DNA from: an uncultured Clostridia bacterium
GTDB lineage: Bacteria; Bacillota; Clostridia; Christensenellales; Aristaeellaceae
Direction: 5' to 3'
Assembly: GCA_937907055.1 (NCBI GenBank)
Contig: CALCTW010000034.1
Coordinates: forward strand, 3,009-35,008
Length of the DNA stretch: 32,000 nt
Both the position numbers and the translations under genes were made by a program. Shown piece by piece: positions 10,732 through 16,108 of this stretch. How positions within the stretch are numbered: the first letter of the stretch is position 1; each line of letters starts with the position of its first letter. The notes beneath the pieces were generated by a model, which did not search any database, was not told the DNA's origin, and saw only the letters and a program-made list of their open reading frames with translations.

Positions 10732-10744
10732 ATGTATGGATCAC

Positions 10745-12562
10745 TTACGCGTTCAGCAGAGAGCCGGTCGCCTCATCCTCATACTGACGGGTATACAGGC
10801 GATGATAATAGCCGCCCTTCTTCAGCAGCTCGGTATGCGTGCCCTGTTCCACGATCTTACCGTCCTGCACCACGAGGATCAGATCGGCATTCTTGACAGT
10901 AGACAGGCGGTGCGCGATCACAAGGCTGGTACGGCCCTGTATGATGGTATCGATGGCAGCCTGGATCTTCTGTTCGGTCAGGGTATCCACGCTGGCCGTG
11001 GCTTCATCCAGCACCAGAATCCGGGGATCGCACAGGATGGCGCGCGCGAAGCTGATCAATTGCTTTTCGCCGGTGGACAGCACATCGCCGCCCTCGCCCA
11101 CATCGGTATCGATGCCGTTTTCCATCCGCGCCACCACCTCATCCGCGCTGACCAGCTTCAGCGCGCGGGCGATCTGTTCCTCCGTCGCGTTCGGATTGCC
11201 GTACAGCAGGTTTTCACGGATCGTGCCGCTGAACAGATGCGGTGTCTGCAGCACGTAGCCGATGGCGGAATGCAGCCACAGCTGACTGCGCTCCCGGGCA
11301 TCCCGGTCATCGATCAGCACCTGACCCGCGGTGGGCTCAAAGAAGCGGCAGACCAGATTGACCAGTGTACTCTTGCCCGCGCCGGTCTCGCCGACGATGG
11401 CGATATTGCTGCCGAAGGGGATCTTCAGATTAAAATGCTCCAGCACGTATTCATCGCCGTCCGGATACCTGAAGGAGACATCCTTGAATTCGATATCGCC
11501 GCGCAGCGGTTCCCAGTTTTCCTTCTTCGGGTTGAAGGAGTCGCCGTACTGTTCAATGACCGCGGGGGTATCGGTCACATCGCTCTTCGTGCCCAGCAGA
11601 CGGGTCAGACGCTCGATATTGACCTGCGTTGTAATCACATCGCTGATCGCGTCAATGATCCAGCGGACAGGCTCCATCATGCCCTCGGCATAGCTCATGA
11701 ACATGGAGAAGGTGCCCACTTCGCTCTCGGCGATGTATCCGCCCTTCCACAGCACGATGGCCAGCGCCAGACTGCTGGCCAGGTTCATGGTGGCGGCAAA
11801 CAGTCCGCGAAGACGGCTGGCATGGATGCCCATGTGCTTCATCTTCGCCGTATCGGCATTGAAATCGCCGTTCATCTTATCCTCGATCACGAGGGTCTTG
11901 ATGGTCTTGGCGCCGGTAATGCCTTCATTGAAATCGCCCGTGATCCTGCTGTTCTGCTCGCGGATCTGACGGTTCACATGCACCAGCTTTTTCTGGAACA
12001 GGCTGAAAAGGATCACGATCAGCGGCAGAATGGTGACCACCATCAGCGCCAGCTTGGCGTTGACGATGAACATGACCGCCACGACACCCACCAGATAGCT
12101 CAGATGCCACACGCTGTCCATCAGCGTCCAGCTGACCAGCGAGCCGATGCGGGAGGTGTCGCTCATCACACGGCTGTGGATATAGCCCACGCTGTTCTGA
12201 TTAAAATAGCTGAAGGAAAGGGTCTGCAGATGATTGAACGCCGCGTTGCGCAGGTCCCGGTTGAAGGAGACCTCCACCGTCATGGCGCCGGAGCAGCTCA
12301 CATAGTTGCACGCGCCCGCGAACAGGGTGCAGCCGACATACAGCAGAATGAACCACGGCAGGGTGTCCAGGGTATGCTCCCCGATAAAGTGGTTCAGCGC
12401 GTAGCGCTGGAAAACCGGAATCAGGATATCCACACCCGTCGCCAGCAGGCCGCAAAACACCATGATGCTCAGCCGCTTCCGGTACTTTTTCATGAACGGG
12501 ATCAGCCGCGGGATCCCGAAAAACGGCAGAGACACATTTTTTTCTTTCGTTTCTTCACTCAT
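10745..12562 (-). CDS. ABC transporter permease/ATP-binding protein (type I exporter half-transporter, second of pair)
   Basis: An N-terminal six-TM exporter domain. Walker A GETGAGKS, signature LSTGEKQ, Walker B ILVLDEATAS. The start overlaps the upstream stop (TAATG at 12560-12564). Confidence 0.93.
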   Translation of the reverse strand: MSEETKEKNVSLPFFGIPRLIPFMKKYRKRLSIMVFCGLLATGVDILIPVFQRYALNHFIGEHTLDTLPWFILLYVGCTLFAGACNYVSCSGAMTVEVSFNRDLRNAAFNHLQTLSFSYFNQNSVGYIHSRVMSDTSRIGSLVSWTLMDSVWHLSYLVGVVAVMFIVNAKLALMVVTILPLIVILFSLFQKKLVHVNRQIREQNSRITGDFNEGITGAKTIKTLVIEDKMNGDFNADTAKMKHMGIHASRLRGLFAATMNLASSLALAIVLWKGGYIAESEVGTFSMFMSYAEGMMEPVRWIIDAISDVITTQVNIERLTRLLGTKSDVTDTPAVIEQYGDSFNPKKENWEPLRGDIEFKDVSFRYPDGDEYVLEHFNLKIPFGSNIAIVGETGAGKSTLVNLVCRFFEPTAGQVLIDDRDARERSQLWLHSAIGYVLQTPHLFSGTIRENLLYGNPNATEEQIARALKLVSADEVVARMENGIDTDVGEGGDVLSTGEKQLISFARAILCDPRILVLDEATASVDTLTEQKIQAAIDTIIQGRTSLVIAHRLSTVKNADLILVVQDGKIVEQGTHTELLKKGGYYHRLYTRQYEDEATGSLLNA

Positions 12563-14400
12563 TATTCACACGCCTCCTCTCCGGAAAGGCTCTGGATATC
12601 GTAGATCTGTTTATATAGTCCCTCCTGACGCGCCAGTTCCTCCGGCGTGCCCAGCTGGGCGACCCGGCCATGATCCAGCACAAGCACCTGCTCTGCCTTG
12701 GACAGGGTGGTGATGCGGTGGCTGATCAGGATGATGGTCGCGCTGCCGAAACGCTTTTCAAGCGCGGCGCGGATCTTCGCGTCGGTCTCGGTATCGACTG
12801 CGGACAGGGAATCATCAAAGATCATCACCGGGGTCTTCTGCGTCAGCATACGGGCAATGGCCGCGCGCTGCTTCTGACCGCCGGACAGCGTAACGCCGCG
12901 CTCACCCACGAAGGTGTCATAACCCTTGCTGAAGCCGTTGATCGTCTCATCCAGGCAGGCGGCCTTCGCGGCCTCGTCGATATCCGCCTGGATCAGCGCG
13001 TCATTGGTGATCATCAGGTTTTCCTTCAAGGTGCGCGAGAACAGGAACGGCTCCTGCAGAACGATGCCGATGTTCTTCCGCAGATGCTCCATGCGGATCT
13101 CATTGATGTCCCTGCCGCCGATAGTGATCCGGCCGTTCTCCGGCTTCAGGGGATACAGGCGGTCCAGCAGATACATCAGCGTGCTCTTACCGCTGCCCGT
13201 ACCGCCCAGAATGCCCAGCGTGGTCCCGGCCGGGATCCTGAAGGAGATGTCATGCAGCATCTCGGGGCAGTTGTCATACCCGAAGCTCACATGATCGAAT
13301 ACGATATCCCCGGTCATATCGGCATCCGTCACGCCCGGCGCGTCCTTCTCTTCGTCCGCGTCCATGATATAGCCCACACGGTCGATCGCGACACCGGCCT
13401 TGCTCATCTCGCTGATCATGCGGCCCAGCTGACGGACAGGCCACACCAGCATGCCGTTGTAGCTGACGAAGGCGATATACTGGCCGGGTGTCATGTCTCC
13501 GTTCAGCACGAAGATCACACCGAAAACGCTGGTCAGCATCACCTGAACGCCCACCAGAATATCGCTCGTGATCCAGAAGCGCGCCAGGATCATGGCCATT
13601 TTTGTCCACAGGGATGTGTAGTAATCGTTGTGCTTTTCAAAACGGTCACGCTCGTAACGCTCCCGTCCGAAGGCGCGCACCACACGCACACCGGTCAGGT
13701 TCTCCTGCGCCATGGCGCTCAGCTTGCCCTCGTTTTCATCGCACTTTTCAAAAGCCTCTCCCACCTTATTGTGGAACACCAGCGAATAGATGACCATGAT
13801 GGGCATCGGCGCCAGCGCGACCAGCGTCAGAAGCGGATTCATCCCGATCATGAAGACCAGGCTCATGACCAGCAGGATCACGATGCGGATCAGGCCGGTC
13901 ATCTGCTCGGAAATAAAGTTGCGCATGGTATCGATATCGCTGGTGCAGCGCTGGATGATATCGCCCGTGTGATTCTGCATGTGCCACTGGAACGGCAGGC
14001 GGCTGATGTGCGAATAAAGCGTATCGCGCATGTTCTTGACCAGTGTTTCGCTGCCGCGGGCATTGGTCACGCGGAAGCCGTACTGGCAGATCACCTTGAC
14101 CAGCGCCACCAGCACGATGGCGAGCGCCAGGATCCACAGATCCTGCCTGAGCTGCGCCACACCGCCCACCTTCGCGATCAGATCCTGCACAAAGGGGCTC
14201 AGACTGCTGAGCTCCTGCCCGCCGATGACATTATCCACCGCCACGCGGATGATCTGCGGGGTGATCATGTCGCTCAGCGCGCTGAGCGCCGCGCAAAGCA
14301 TGCACAAAAGGAACATGGCCCGCGCGCCCCTCAAAAATGCCCAGATCAGTTTCGCGCGTCCGGGCCGCTTTTCAGACGGCTTTGAAATCGTATTTTCCAT
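12562..14400 (-). CDS. ABC transporter permease/ATP-binding protein (type I exporter half-transporter, first of pair)
   Basis: Walker A GGTGSGKS, signature LSGGQKQR, Walker B VMIFDDSLSAVD. I chose the start at the ATG at 14400 (MENTISK...) because GGGAGGGA precedes it. The longer track ORF to 14463 lacks an SD. Confidence 0.92.
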   Translation of the reverse strand: MENTISKPSEKRPGRAKLIWAFLRGARAMFLLCMLCAALSALSDMITPQIIRVAVDNVIGGQELSSLSPFVQDLIAKVGGVAQLRQDLWILALAIVLVALVKVICQYGFRVTNARGSETLVKNMRDTLYSHISRLPFQWHMQNHTGDIIQRCTSDIDTMRNFISEQMTGLIRIVILLVMSLVFMIGMNPLLTLVALAPMPIMVIYSLVFHNKVGEAFEKCDENEGKLSAMAQENLTGVRVVRAFGRERYERDRFEKHNDYYTSLWTKMAMILARFWITSDILVGVQVMLTSVFGVIFVLNGDMTPGQYIAFVSYNGMLVWPVRQLGRMISEMSKAGVAIDRVGYIMDADEEKDAPGVTDADMTGDIVFDHVSFGYDNCPEMLHDISFRIPAGTTLGILGGTGSGKSTLMYLLDRLYPLKPENGRITIGGRDINEIRMEHLRKNIGIVLQEPFLFSRTLKENLMITNDALIQADIDEAAKAACLDETINGFSKGYDTFVGERGVTLSGGQKQRAAIARMLTQKTPVMIFDDSLSAVDTETDAKIRAALEKRFGSATIILISHRITTLSKAEQVLVLDHGRVAQLGTPEELARQEGLYKQIYDIQSLSGEEACE

Positions 14401-14440
14401 ATTCGGTCCCTCCCTATCACAGAGTCTGTTTCTCTGCCAA

Positions 14441-14476
14441 TAAAAAACGCCTGTTCCGCACATACGGACAGGCGTG
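14441..14476 (-). terminator. Intrinsic terminator inside the 5' leader of the ABC operon (putative attenuator)
   Basis: On the minus-strand RNA: CGCCTGTCCG, loop UAUGUG, CGGAACAGGCG, then U6. The plus-strand stem arms are 14448-14458 and 14465-14474, with the A-run at 14442-14447. It lies about 40 nt upstream of the ABC start codon and 20 nt after the leader ORF stop. Confidence 0.6.
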
Positions 14477-14493
14477 GAATTTCATCAGCCCTT

Positions 14494-14568
14494 TTACAGG
14501 AAGAAGGCACATGTATCCCTTTCCTGTTCCGTATCCTGCATATCATTCAGATGATCCCTGATGTACAT
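14494..14568 (-). CDS. Candidate 24 aa leader peptide (MYIRDHLNDMQDTEQERDTCAFFL)
   Basis: AGGAGAAGGAAC lies immediately upstream of the ATG (14566-14568, minus). The ORF contains CGGAACAGG, identical to the 3' arm of the downstream terminator, which allows an alternative antiterminator pairing. Confidence 0.4.
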   Translation of the reverse strand: MYIRDHLNDMQDTEQERDTCAFFL

Positions 14569-14691
14569 GTTCCTTCTCCTTTCTGTTTCATTCCGGGTGC
14601 CTGCTCAACATATCACAGTTTTCCGGTTTTGTCACGTGTTTTCATGTTGCCTTCCGCCCTGCCGGGACGGGCTGTAAGGCTAACGACCGTT

Positions 14692-14720
14692 ATTATTGCA
14701 TAACGGATGTTCTCTGTCAA
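14692..14720 (-). promoter_or_regulatory. Candidate promoter of the ABC exporter leader transcript
   Basis: Minus strand: TTGACA (plus 14715-14720), a 17 nt spacer ending in the TGC extended -10 element, then AATAAT (plus 14692-14697). It predicts a leader of about 285 nt. Confidence 0.5.
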
Positions 14721-15865: not shown

Positions 15866-16039
15866 TCAATACTTACGCTTACGAGCCGCTTCAGCCTTCT
15901 TCTTGCGCTTCACGCTGGGCTTTTCGTAATGTTCGCGCTTGCGGACCTCAGCAAGAACGCCCGCGCGGGCGCACTGCCTCTTAAAGCGCTTCAGGGCGCT
16001 TTCCAAAGATTCATTCTCTTTTACTCGAACTTCAGACAC
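15866..16039 (-). CDS. rpsU: 30S ribosomal protein S21
   Basis: (V/M)[56 protein letters not shown] is a textbook S21 sequence. The GTG start at 16037-16039 is preceded by GGGAGGGA. It corresponds to only the last 57 codons of the 474 aa track ORF. Confidence 0.92.
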
Positions 16040-16108
16040 TGTTATCCCTCCCTTCGCCACTTCGCCTTGGCAATCGCCGTATACACGACGGATGGCGACC
16101 GTACGGAT

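Follow-up and report, generated by a model that had tools for sequence, protein, structure and literature searches.

The leader of a two-gene ABC exporter operon from an uncultured Clostridia bacterium (contig CALCTW010000034.1, positions 3,009 to 35,008) is probably a ribosome-dependent, leader-peptide transcription attenuator that gates both ABC genes. The operon lies within a stretch of 32,000 nucleotides (nt) that was analysed as a whole (the window); coordinates of window features are positions of this window, and the leader and ABC features are on its minus strand. The leader elements are present and conserved, and the helices covary and are mutually exclusive in folding calculations. 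What distinguishes this leader is that the initiation region of its open reading frame (ORF) is itself one strand of the anti-antiterminator. The leader family is undescribed, and the attenuation principle on which it would rely is already known.

The leader transcription unit comprises the following features.

14819-14789, minus strand: terminator of the upstream 290-amino-acid gene, the 5' boundary of the leader transcription unit.
14692..14720, minus strand: promoter-like site P1, TTGACA (14720-14715), a 17-nt spacer ending in TGC, and AATAAT (14697-14692), with 11 of 12 consensus positions and a TG extension.
14636..14690, minus strand: 5' extension specific to P1 transcripts, with a hairpin GCCUU...GAAGGC, a Shine-Dalgarno (SD)-like GGAAGG and a mini-ORF.
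14607..14635, minus strand: promoter-like site P2, GTGACA, a 17-nt spacer and (TGa)TATGTT, with 9 of 12 consensus positions plus TG; its -10 hexamer ends 38 nt from the leader ATG.
14580-14572, minus strand: leader SD AGGAGAAGG, 3 nt before the ATG at 14568.
14564..14580, minus strand: region A, the SD AGGAGAAGG with spacer and AUG, 5' strand of the anti-antiterminator by folding and covariation.
14494..14568, minus strand: leader ORF of 24 codons from ATG 14568, MYIRDHLNDMQDTEQERDTCAFFL, followed by TAA (14496-14494).
14523..14534, minus strand: region B, AUACGGAACAGG, which includes CGGAACAGG, 5' strand of the antiterminator by duplex tests and growing-chain folds.
14498..14515, minus strand: region C, UACAUGUGCCUUCUUCCU (codons T-C-A-F-F-L), anti-SD, 3' strand of the anti-antiterminator by folding and covariation.
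14474-14465, minus strand: terminator 5' arm D, CGCCTGTCCG, which starts after a 19-nt spacer from the leader stop codon.
14464-14459, minus strand: terminator loop TATGTG, read from the sequence.
14458-14448, minus strand: terminator 3' arm E, CGGAACAGGCG, read from the sequence.
14447-14442, minus strand: terminator T6 tract, 41 nt from the ABC start ATG at 14400.

An earlier, sequence-only reading of this stretch had described an SD-preceded ORF of 24 codons at 14568-14494 and a terminator behind it about 40 nt before the first ABC start. Both are confirmed, with a 19-nt gap between ORF and hairpin, a T6 tract and a distance of 41 nt. The terminator hairpin has a folding energy of -17.0 kcal/mol and was skipped by a simple terminator scan because of a bulged A in the stem. 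The same reading had pointed to CGGAACAGG inside the ORF as a copy of the terminator 3' arm. This motif lies at 14531-14523 and repeats the first 9 nt of that arm exactly, and leaders of other clades have a counterpart with different arm sequences. The whole-leader fold in the window is unusually stable (z = -3.5; equalled by none of 200 shuffles). A promoter scan found no promoter-like site in the 41 nt between the T-run and the ABC ATG, and the upstream gene is separately terminated, so that the ABC genes should be reachable solely via read-through of the leader terminator. The sequence and structure elements of a leader attenuator were all found here, namely a promoter with an SD-preceded short ORF, a terminator ahead of structural genes, an antiterminator and an anti-antiterminator.

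Homologous leaders were collected through a search with the first ABC half-transporter (ABC1), which gave 66 loci with one genome per species, and five more contigs were added to cover the closest database proteins. The same leader type is found at thirteen loci (the window, L147, L148, L001, L013, L003, L151, L061, L029, L030, L032, L044 and L045). They span about eight clades, with ABC1 orthologues of 50-78% amino-acid identity, and their hosts are Clostridia metagenome-assembled genomes, Eubacterium sp. CAG:841 and Gemmiger, from gut and rumen. Common to all 13 are a strong SD with a promoter 35-55 nt ahead of it, an AUG shortly 3' of a GGAG or GAGG core, and an ATG-initiated frame that stays open for 18-25 codons and always ends after C and before D, whereas the other two frames close after 0-55 codons. 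A GC-rich hairpin with a T-run follows the stop codon after 18-27 nt in every leader, and 25-78 nt separate this terminator from the ABC start. The upstream neighbours vary by locus and include MnmA, an Ig-domain protein and an SH3-like protein, which indicates that the leader travels with the ABC operon.

The best-supported element of the leader is the anti-antiterminator helix A:C, in which the final ~18 nt of the leader ORF pair back with its own SD, spacer and AUG. It is also the strongest conserved element, and it had been missed in the sequence-only reading. A:C is part of the minimum free energy (MFE) fold of all 13 leaders. In the window, the helix joins AGGA with UCCU, GAAGG with CCUUC and ACAUGUA with UACAUGU (14580-14564 with 14515-14498), and its duplex energy of -21.2 kcal/mol (z = -4.7) was equalled by none of 300 shuffles. 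In eight of the ten leaders tested, A:C beats dinucleotide shuffles by 3-4.7 standard deviations; the two exceptions are the Gemmiger leaders, where a GCGCGC-rich repeat survives shuffling.

The spacer between SD and AUG varies by clade (AAC, GCAU, UUUC, UGUCAUC, CGCGCAC) and the partner strand changes to match, with 3-5 distinct canonical pair types at each of the A:C positions -8 to -1. Among eight clade representatives, the cognate A:C duplexes sum to -181.5 kcal/mol, compared with -131.0 ± 8.5 kcal/mol for deranged pairings, none of which was as good. Since the all-clade MAFFT alignment mis-registers region C, AUG-anchored folds of each sequence, cognate-duplex tests and column counts on eight closer sequences were used. 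On a plain MAFFT alignment of these eight leaders, RNAalifold independently found A:C and the terminator. A:C cells in this alignment are paired in 84% of cases versus 39-57% when the partners are slid by 1-3 columns, and 11 of 16 A:C pairs have a compensatory change versus 1-5 when slid, a level reached by none of 500 shuffles. Compensatory changes also occur in the terminator helix. The sole conserved peptide motif, Ala-Phe (GCC UUC), is the anti-SD strand, and L147 reads the RNA motif CAUGUGCCUU in another frame. Pairing of GCCUUC with the SD RNA accounts for the conservation of Ala-Phe.

The antiterminator B:D has support too, although A:C and the terminator are better supported. In every clade, the upstream sequence that pairs best with D falls within leader-ORF nt 19-57; with L148 set apart, the range narrows to nt 30-57. 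The B:D duplex in the window amounts to -13 to -18 kcal/mol, and CGGAACAGG pairs there with CCUGUCCG. The corresponding partners are GCGGCGGA and UCCGCCUGC in L003 and L151, CGCGGCGGA and UCCGCCCGCG in L061, CGGGUAACGCG and GCUUGCCUG in L001, and AAGGGGCG and GCCCCUGC in L044. Combined over eight clades, the comparison with permuted D arms gives a Stouffer z of -4.7, and cognate pairings surpass deranged ones with p ~1e-4. The window's 11 antiterminator pairs are 64% paired on a plain alignment (A4) versus 40-49% when slid, and five of them have a compensatory change. Covariation in homologous leaders, which had been suggested as a check on the attenuator, is therefore found, strongly for A:C and more weakly but significantly for the antiterminator. 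In the antiterminator conformer of the window, GGGAU pairs with AUUCC, and GCCUU of region C folds against AAGGG of the spacer; with these extra pairings, region C has a different use in each of the two states.

We propose that four segments of the leader transcript would form three mutually exclusive helices. Segment A consists of SD, spacer and AUG, B and C lie in the distal third of the ORF, D is the terminator 5' arm with a few flanking nt, and E is the 3' arm. A:C would be the anti-antiterminator, which would also shut the leader's own ribosome-binding site, whereas B, with C, would pair with D as the antiterminator, and D:E with U6 would be the terminator. A:C would close as soon as C is transcribed. 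If a ribosome is absent or already gone, A:C would hold, D would be free and D:E would form, and transcription would stop near 14442, 41 nt before the ABC start. A normally moving ribosome would cover B/C while D emerges, or would have left by then, and termination would again result. A ribosome held at the start or first codons would occupy A and leave B/C free, and B/C could then take D before E is made, permitting read-through into the ABC genes. The leader would respond when early translation slows down or is blocked, for instance under ribosome-targeting antibiotics, as happens with bmrB-bmrCD and vmlR of Bacillus subtilis. Analogy with these two systems suggests both the early stall as the activating position and antibiotics of this kind as the signal. 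The logic of the sequence-only reading, in which the mid-ORF copy would capture the 5' arm unless covered by ribosomes, is supported as far as the antiterminator itself is concerned; the predicted default without a ribosome is termination, owing to A:C.

A further twist on this mechanism is conceivable, though we consider it improbable. The upstream ORF (uORF) might be self-closing, with its SD and AUG open only co-transcriptionally, before its own 3' end is made, and each transcript would then admit at most one ribosome. Such a leader would sense initiation occupancy or free ribosomes rather than a nascent-peptide stall, and the decoy SD-like strand supplied by the upstream promoter could compete for C and retune the switch.

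Switching was followed in MFE folds of growing chains, that is, transcripts of increasing length, for the 13 leaders. Once the stop codon is out, A:C (15-20 base pairs, bp) is present in all of them. When D and the terminator loop emerge, A:C is wholly replaced by an antiterminator of 8-10 bp in seven leaders, the window included. After completion of the 3' arm, A:C and the terminator return in five of these seven, again including the window; the terminator alone returns in L147, and the antiterminator persists in L061. Ribosomes were represented by masks, each a 30-nt unpaired footprint imposed on folding. With the start codon or codon 5 masked, D is more likely to be captured by an upstream partner while the 3' arm is still missing (probability up from 0.67 to 0.82 in the window, from 0.38 to 0.97 in L003 and from 0.62 to 0.93 in L044), and a mask at codons 10-15 lowers D capture or leaves it unchanged. 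D capture is also raised by a mask at the stop codon.

Several points weigh against a ribosome-dependent attenuator of this kind. We infer translation of the leader ORF from the conservation of its frame and SD, the mask calculations and the analogy with bmrB-bmrCD and vmlR, and the leaders are known from sequence alone, from uncultured metagenome-assembled genomes or metagenome contigs. The leader peptides are almost unrelated between clades; the peptide is unconserved and has no recognised arrest motif. Taken singly, the B:D duplexes differ only modestly from permuted arms (p = 0.02-0.29; 0.03 in the window). Six of the 13 leaders never switch to the antiterminator in equilibrium folds. The full-length equilibrium favours the terminator even when the start is masked: in the window, the terminator probability changes from 0.95 to 0.94 with the start mask, and only the stop-codon mask brings it down, to 0.06. 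In folding with masked segments, another check suggested earlier, early masks raise D capture, and in the full-length window the terminator stays at 0.94 with the start masked. The early-stall version consequently rests on kinetics and analogy. Finally, the leader family is small, with further members absent from a covariance-model search, and most orthologous ABC operons are without the leader, for example those directly downstream of gap.

The equilibrium masks fit early-stall and stop-codon versions alike. In the latter, the same three-helix attenuator would be activated by a ribosome that sits at the final codons or at the stop codon because termination is slow or coupling is tight; C would be covered, A:C and B:C would be broken, and B would be freed for D. 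This would account for the fall in terminator probability under the stop mask in the window and for the raised D capture under that mask in L003, L044, L045 and L032. The tightly kept distance of 18-27 nt between stop codon and terminator also fits, as does the position of B and D, both of which lie beyond the footprint of a ribosome at the stop codon. We still hold activation at the stop codon to be unlikely, as the loop closed by the antiterminator would then contain the bound ribosome, and a normally terminating ribosome would also activate, making read-through constitutive. The last residue varies (L, K, P, R, V, F, I) and TAA, TAG and TGA all occur, and the precedents bmrB, vmlR and trp stall upstream of the antiterminator.

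Two explanations dispense with attenuation by a ribosome. The short ORF may encode a functional small peptide, a signal or a substrate exported by the ABC pair, with a terminator of its own, and the ABC genes would then be expressed via unregulated leaky read-through. The strong SD, the conserved ORF length and the constant position next to an exporter agree with this, and in many versions the peptide is basic at its N-terminus and aromatic or Cys-containing at its C-terminus (CAFFL, GYAFLP, AFTCL). The sequence, however, diverges almost fully between clades and changes non-synonymously within species (H6L; L001 versus L013), searches of the leader peptides against Pfam and NCBIfam gave zero family matches, and the conserved C-terminal codons are the anti-SD strand, which L147 uses as CAUGUGCCUU in a different frame. 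As a functional peptide would also leave the covarying antiterminator and the three-helix exclusivity unexplained, we regard it as very unlikely. Alternatively, the leader could be a translation-independent RNA switch that senses a small ligand or a protein, in which case the purine-rich "SD" would be a mere helix strand and the ORF incidental. Conservation is indeed carried by the helices and not the peptide, and the SD and AUG are paired in the most stable fold, which disfavours initiation on the finished RNA. Against this stand the well-placed AUG and the frame of 18-25 codons that ends between C and D in all 13 leaders, with other frames closing at scattered positions, and the hairpin loop, where a ligand pocket would be expected, is unconserved. 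In Rfam 15, the leader region had only chance-level matches at E <= 10, far under the gathering scores, and nothing in the whole window reached a gathering score. A switch of this kind is the least probable of the explanations considered. An amino-acid-sensing attenuator was rejected on the grounds that single-codon runs are absent and the operon is not biosynthetic, as was a type I toxin mRNA, given that the peptide is charged, not hydrophobic, and unconserved.

Within the window's species, five leader positions differ between the window and three sister strains (alignment A7). The mini-ORF ATG is GTG in two sister strains, Leu takes the place of His6 (a loop position of the hairpin), a Cys codon bordering region C has a synonymous change, a single base of the spacer differs, and the terminator loop has T instead of G14461. 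No difference falls in the SD, B, D or E.

Two promoter-like sites precede the leader ORF. P1, which had been noted in the sequence-only reading as TTGACA, 17 nt, TGC and AATAAT, is present at 14720-14692 and is unchanged in the three sister strains (A7). P1 and the 55-nt extension have no counterpart beyond the window's species in alignment A5, in which the two hexamers of P2 fall in the same columns as the -35 and -10 elements of L003, L151, L061, L147, L001 and L013. By this alignment, the homologues have promoters orthologous to the weaker-looking P2, and the near-consensus P1 is species-specific. The earlier claim of a promoter followed by a 5' region of about 100 nt therefore holds for the existence of P1 only; because P2 is the conserved promoter, that 5' region belongs to P1 transcripts alone. 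The mini-ORF of the extension (14645-14613) has ten codons (MKTRDKTGKL) and crosses P2. The extension is predicted to form a duplex of -42.3 kcal/mol with region C, spacer and D, a value matched by 2.7% of permuted extensions, and it may be a second, competing anti-antiterminator strand. An origin of the P1 module by tandem duplication of the P2 promoter/SD module was considered and set aside, the pairwise alignment being unconvincing.

The leader type has a narrow distribution. A metagenome scan with the ABC1 alignment yielded essentially zero further leaders of this type among 80 loci, which were mostly gap-adjacent or had other leader types. A covariance model (R1) built from eight leaders and run over 154 sources recovered the training sequences only, plus one copy in the window, and it fails to reach the clades of L029-L032 and L044/L045. 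The gap-adjacent clade, a large one from rumen and gut, comprises L002, L004-L012, L014, L015, L040, L053, L067-L073 and L082. Its ABC pairs follow a GAPDH C-terminus ending in ...IKYFAELK and a strong terminator, GCCCGCTTTCGGAGAACCGGAAGCGGGC, and the leader ORF is absent. The existence of ABC operons without the leader ORF implies that the attenuator is dispensable or replaced.

Leaders of other, unrelated types were seen ahead of homologous ABC pairs. L036, L038 and L039 have a leader ORF of 13 codons (MSERARTTREYTI or MLMKVRSTIEDFN) followed by three CCATGG segments, which are possible alternative hairpins. L081 has a 15-codon ORF, MLSIRIRNFREERIR, with a terminator (1235-1397), and L132 has a 32-codon ORF with a terminator.

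The genes that the leader would regulate are the following.

12562..14400, minus strand: ABC half-transporter 1 (ABC1), 612 amino acids, with SD GGGAGGG at 14414-14408 and a degenerate Walker B (IFDDS).
10745..12562, minus strand: ABC half-transporter 2 (ABC2), 605 amino acids, with a canonical Walker B (LDEAT) and a non-canonical signature (LSTGE).

Both genes are full-length, each with a membrane domain and an ATPase domain, and the start of the second overlaps the stop codon of the first by 1 nt. The IFDDS of ABC1 and the LSTGE of ABC2 together would make up a single degenerate ATP site, the arrangement of heterodimeric exporters. Among bacterial solved structures, ABC1 is best matched by YheI/BmrC (3.5e-87), and ABC2 is closest to TM_0288 (1e-94), with YheH/BmrD at 1e-88. 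Motifs and structure matches thus agree with the BmrCD-type heterodimeric exporter pair named in the sequence-only reading. Neither ABC1 nor ABC2 reached an NCBIfam equivalog cut-off, Tet(46) included, and by these comparisons the likeness to BmrCD is at the family level. An ORF listing places the ABC1 start at an ATG at 14463, inside the terminator loop, where the sister strains have ATT. As this in-loop ATG is lost in the sister strains (G14461 to T), the start at 14400 is confirmed.

Long antisense ORFs lie opposite the ABC genes on the plus strand, at 10736-12604 (622 amino acids) and 12670-14385 (571 amino acids). Their translations are of low complexity and rich in Arg, Ala, His and Gln, which suggests that they are by-products of codon composition rather than genes. 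Elsewhere in the window, at about 15866-16045 on the minus strand, a long spurious ORF ends in ~58 residues that resemble ribosomal protein S21 (rpsU), and a near-consensus promoter lies upstream of this stretch at 16137-16109.

Heterodimeric ABC exporters like BmrCD, PatAB and EfrCD are candidate determinants of multidrug resistance, and their switching is known in very few organisms. The present leaders point to a conserved attenuator, definable by sequence, in abundant uncultured gut and rumen Clostridia, where such regulation is unexplored, and no literature on such a leader in Clostridia was found. They suggest that the coupling of exporters to translation stress extends well beyond Bacillus, and control by a leader ORF may have evolved more than once among these exporters. 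Covariation is unusually clean here, and the helix that sequesters SD and AUG is suited to an RNA family model, which Rfam currently lacks. No new regulatory principle is revealed, but the helix-by-helix model is concrete and testable.

Three exclusive helices, with the ribosome position deciding between them, are also the basis of attenuators of the Escherichia coli trp type (1:2, 2:3 and 3:4). There, regulatory codon runs and a biosynthetic operon are involved, both of which are absent here, and the counterpart of region 1 in the present leader is the initiation region, not distal leader codons. Translational attenuators of the erm and cat type likewise combine a leader ORF with SD-sequestering hairpins that answer stalled ribosomes. 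In those, the SD of the resistance gene is sequestered and the output is translation, whereas here the leader's own SD is sequestered and the output would be transcription termination at a hairpin with U6.

Among systems that control exporters, bmrB-bmrCD of B. subtilis is similar in having a short ORF ahead of a heterodimeric type IV ABC pair and a terminator with alternative antiterminator and anti-antiterminator, and the order ABC1/ABC2 corresponds to YheI (BmrC)/YheH (BmrD). Read-through of bmrB drops when leader translation is abolished and is induced by lincomycin, chloramphenicol and erythromycin (Reilman et al. 2014, PMC4191407). BmrCD has been reported to protect against bleomycin and phleomycin, not against translation inhibitors (bioRxiv 10.1101/2025.01.13.632840), which shows that the inducer and the exporter substrate need not coincide. 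In bmrB, an ORF of 53 codons, all three structures (terminator, antiterminator and anti-antiterminator) are part of the coding sequence, at nt 60-162, and the role of the anti-antiterminator was left open (PMC4191407). The window leader, with 24 codons (18-25 in the family), is less than half as long, and its terminator is outside the ORF, 18-27 nt after the stop codon across the family. The anti-antiterminator is here built from the leader's own SD and AUG, a difference that refers to the published anatomy of bmrB. A sequence relationship between the two leaders did not emerge from the family-model searches (Pfam, NCBIfam and Rfam), which included no direct comparison with the BmrB sequence. 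A BmrB-like leader in the sense of homology, as the sequence-only reading might be taken to imply, is therefore not borne out.

The vmlR leader of B. subtilis, one of the ABCF resistance leaders, provides the precedent for an early stall. A ribosome arrested at the start of its uORF blocks the anti-antiterminator, whereupon the antiterminator forms and RNA polymerase gets past the intrinsic terminator (Takada et al. 2022, PMC9226507), and mutations of the SD and AUG abolish induction (PMC9226507). The uORF lies inside the anti-antiterminator hairpin in both cases. In vmlR it has three codons (MIN) in a bulge, and the SD is single-stranded ahead of the hairpin (PMC9226507), whereas the 24-codon ORF of the window is eight times longer and spans the whole hairpin, with SD, spacer and AUG as the paired 5' strand. 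VmlR is, moreover, a soluble ABCF ribosome-protection factor, and the genes here encode membrane exporters. From these comparisons of sequence and layout, the leader appears to work like bmrB-bmrCD and vmlR while being a member of neither.

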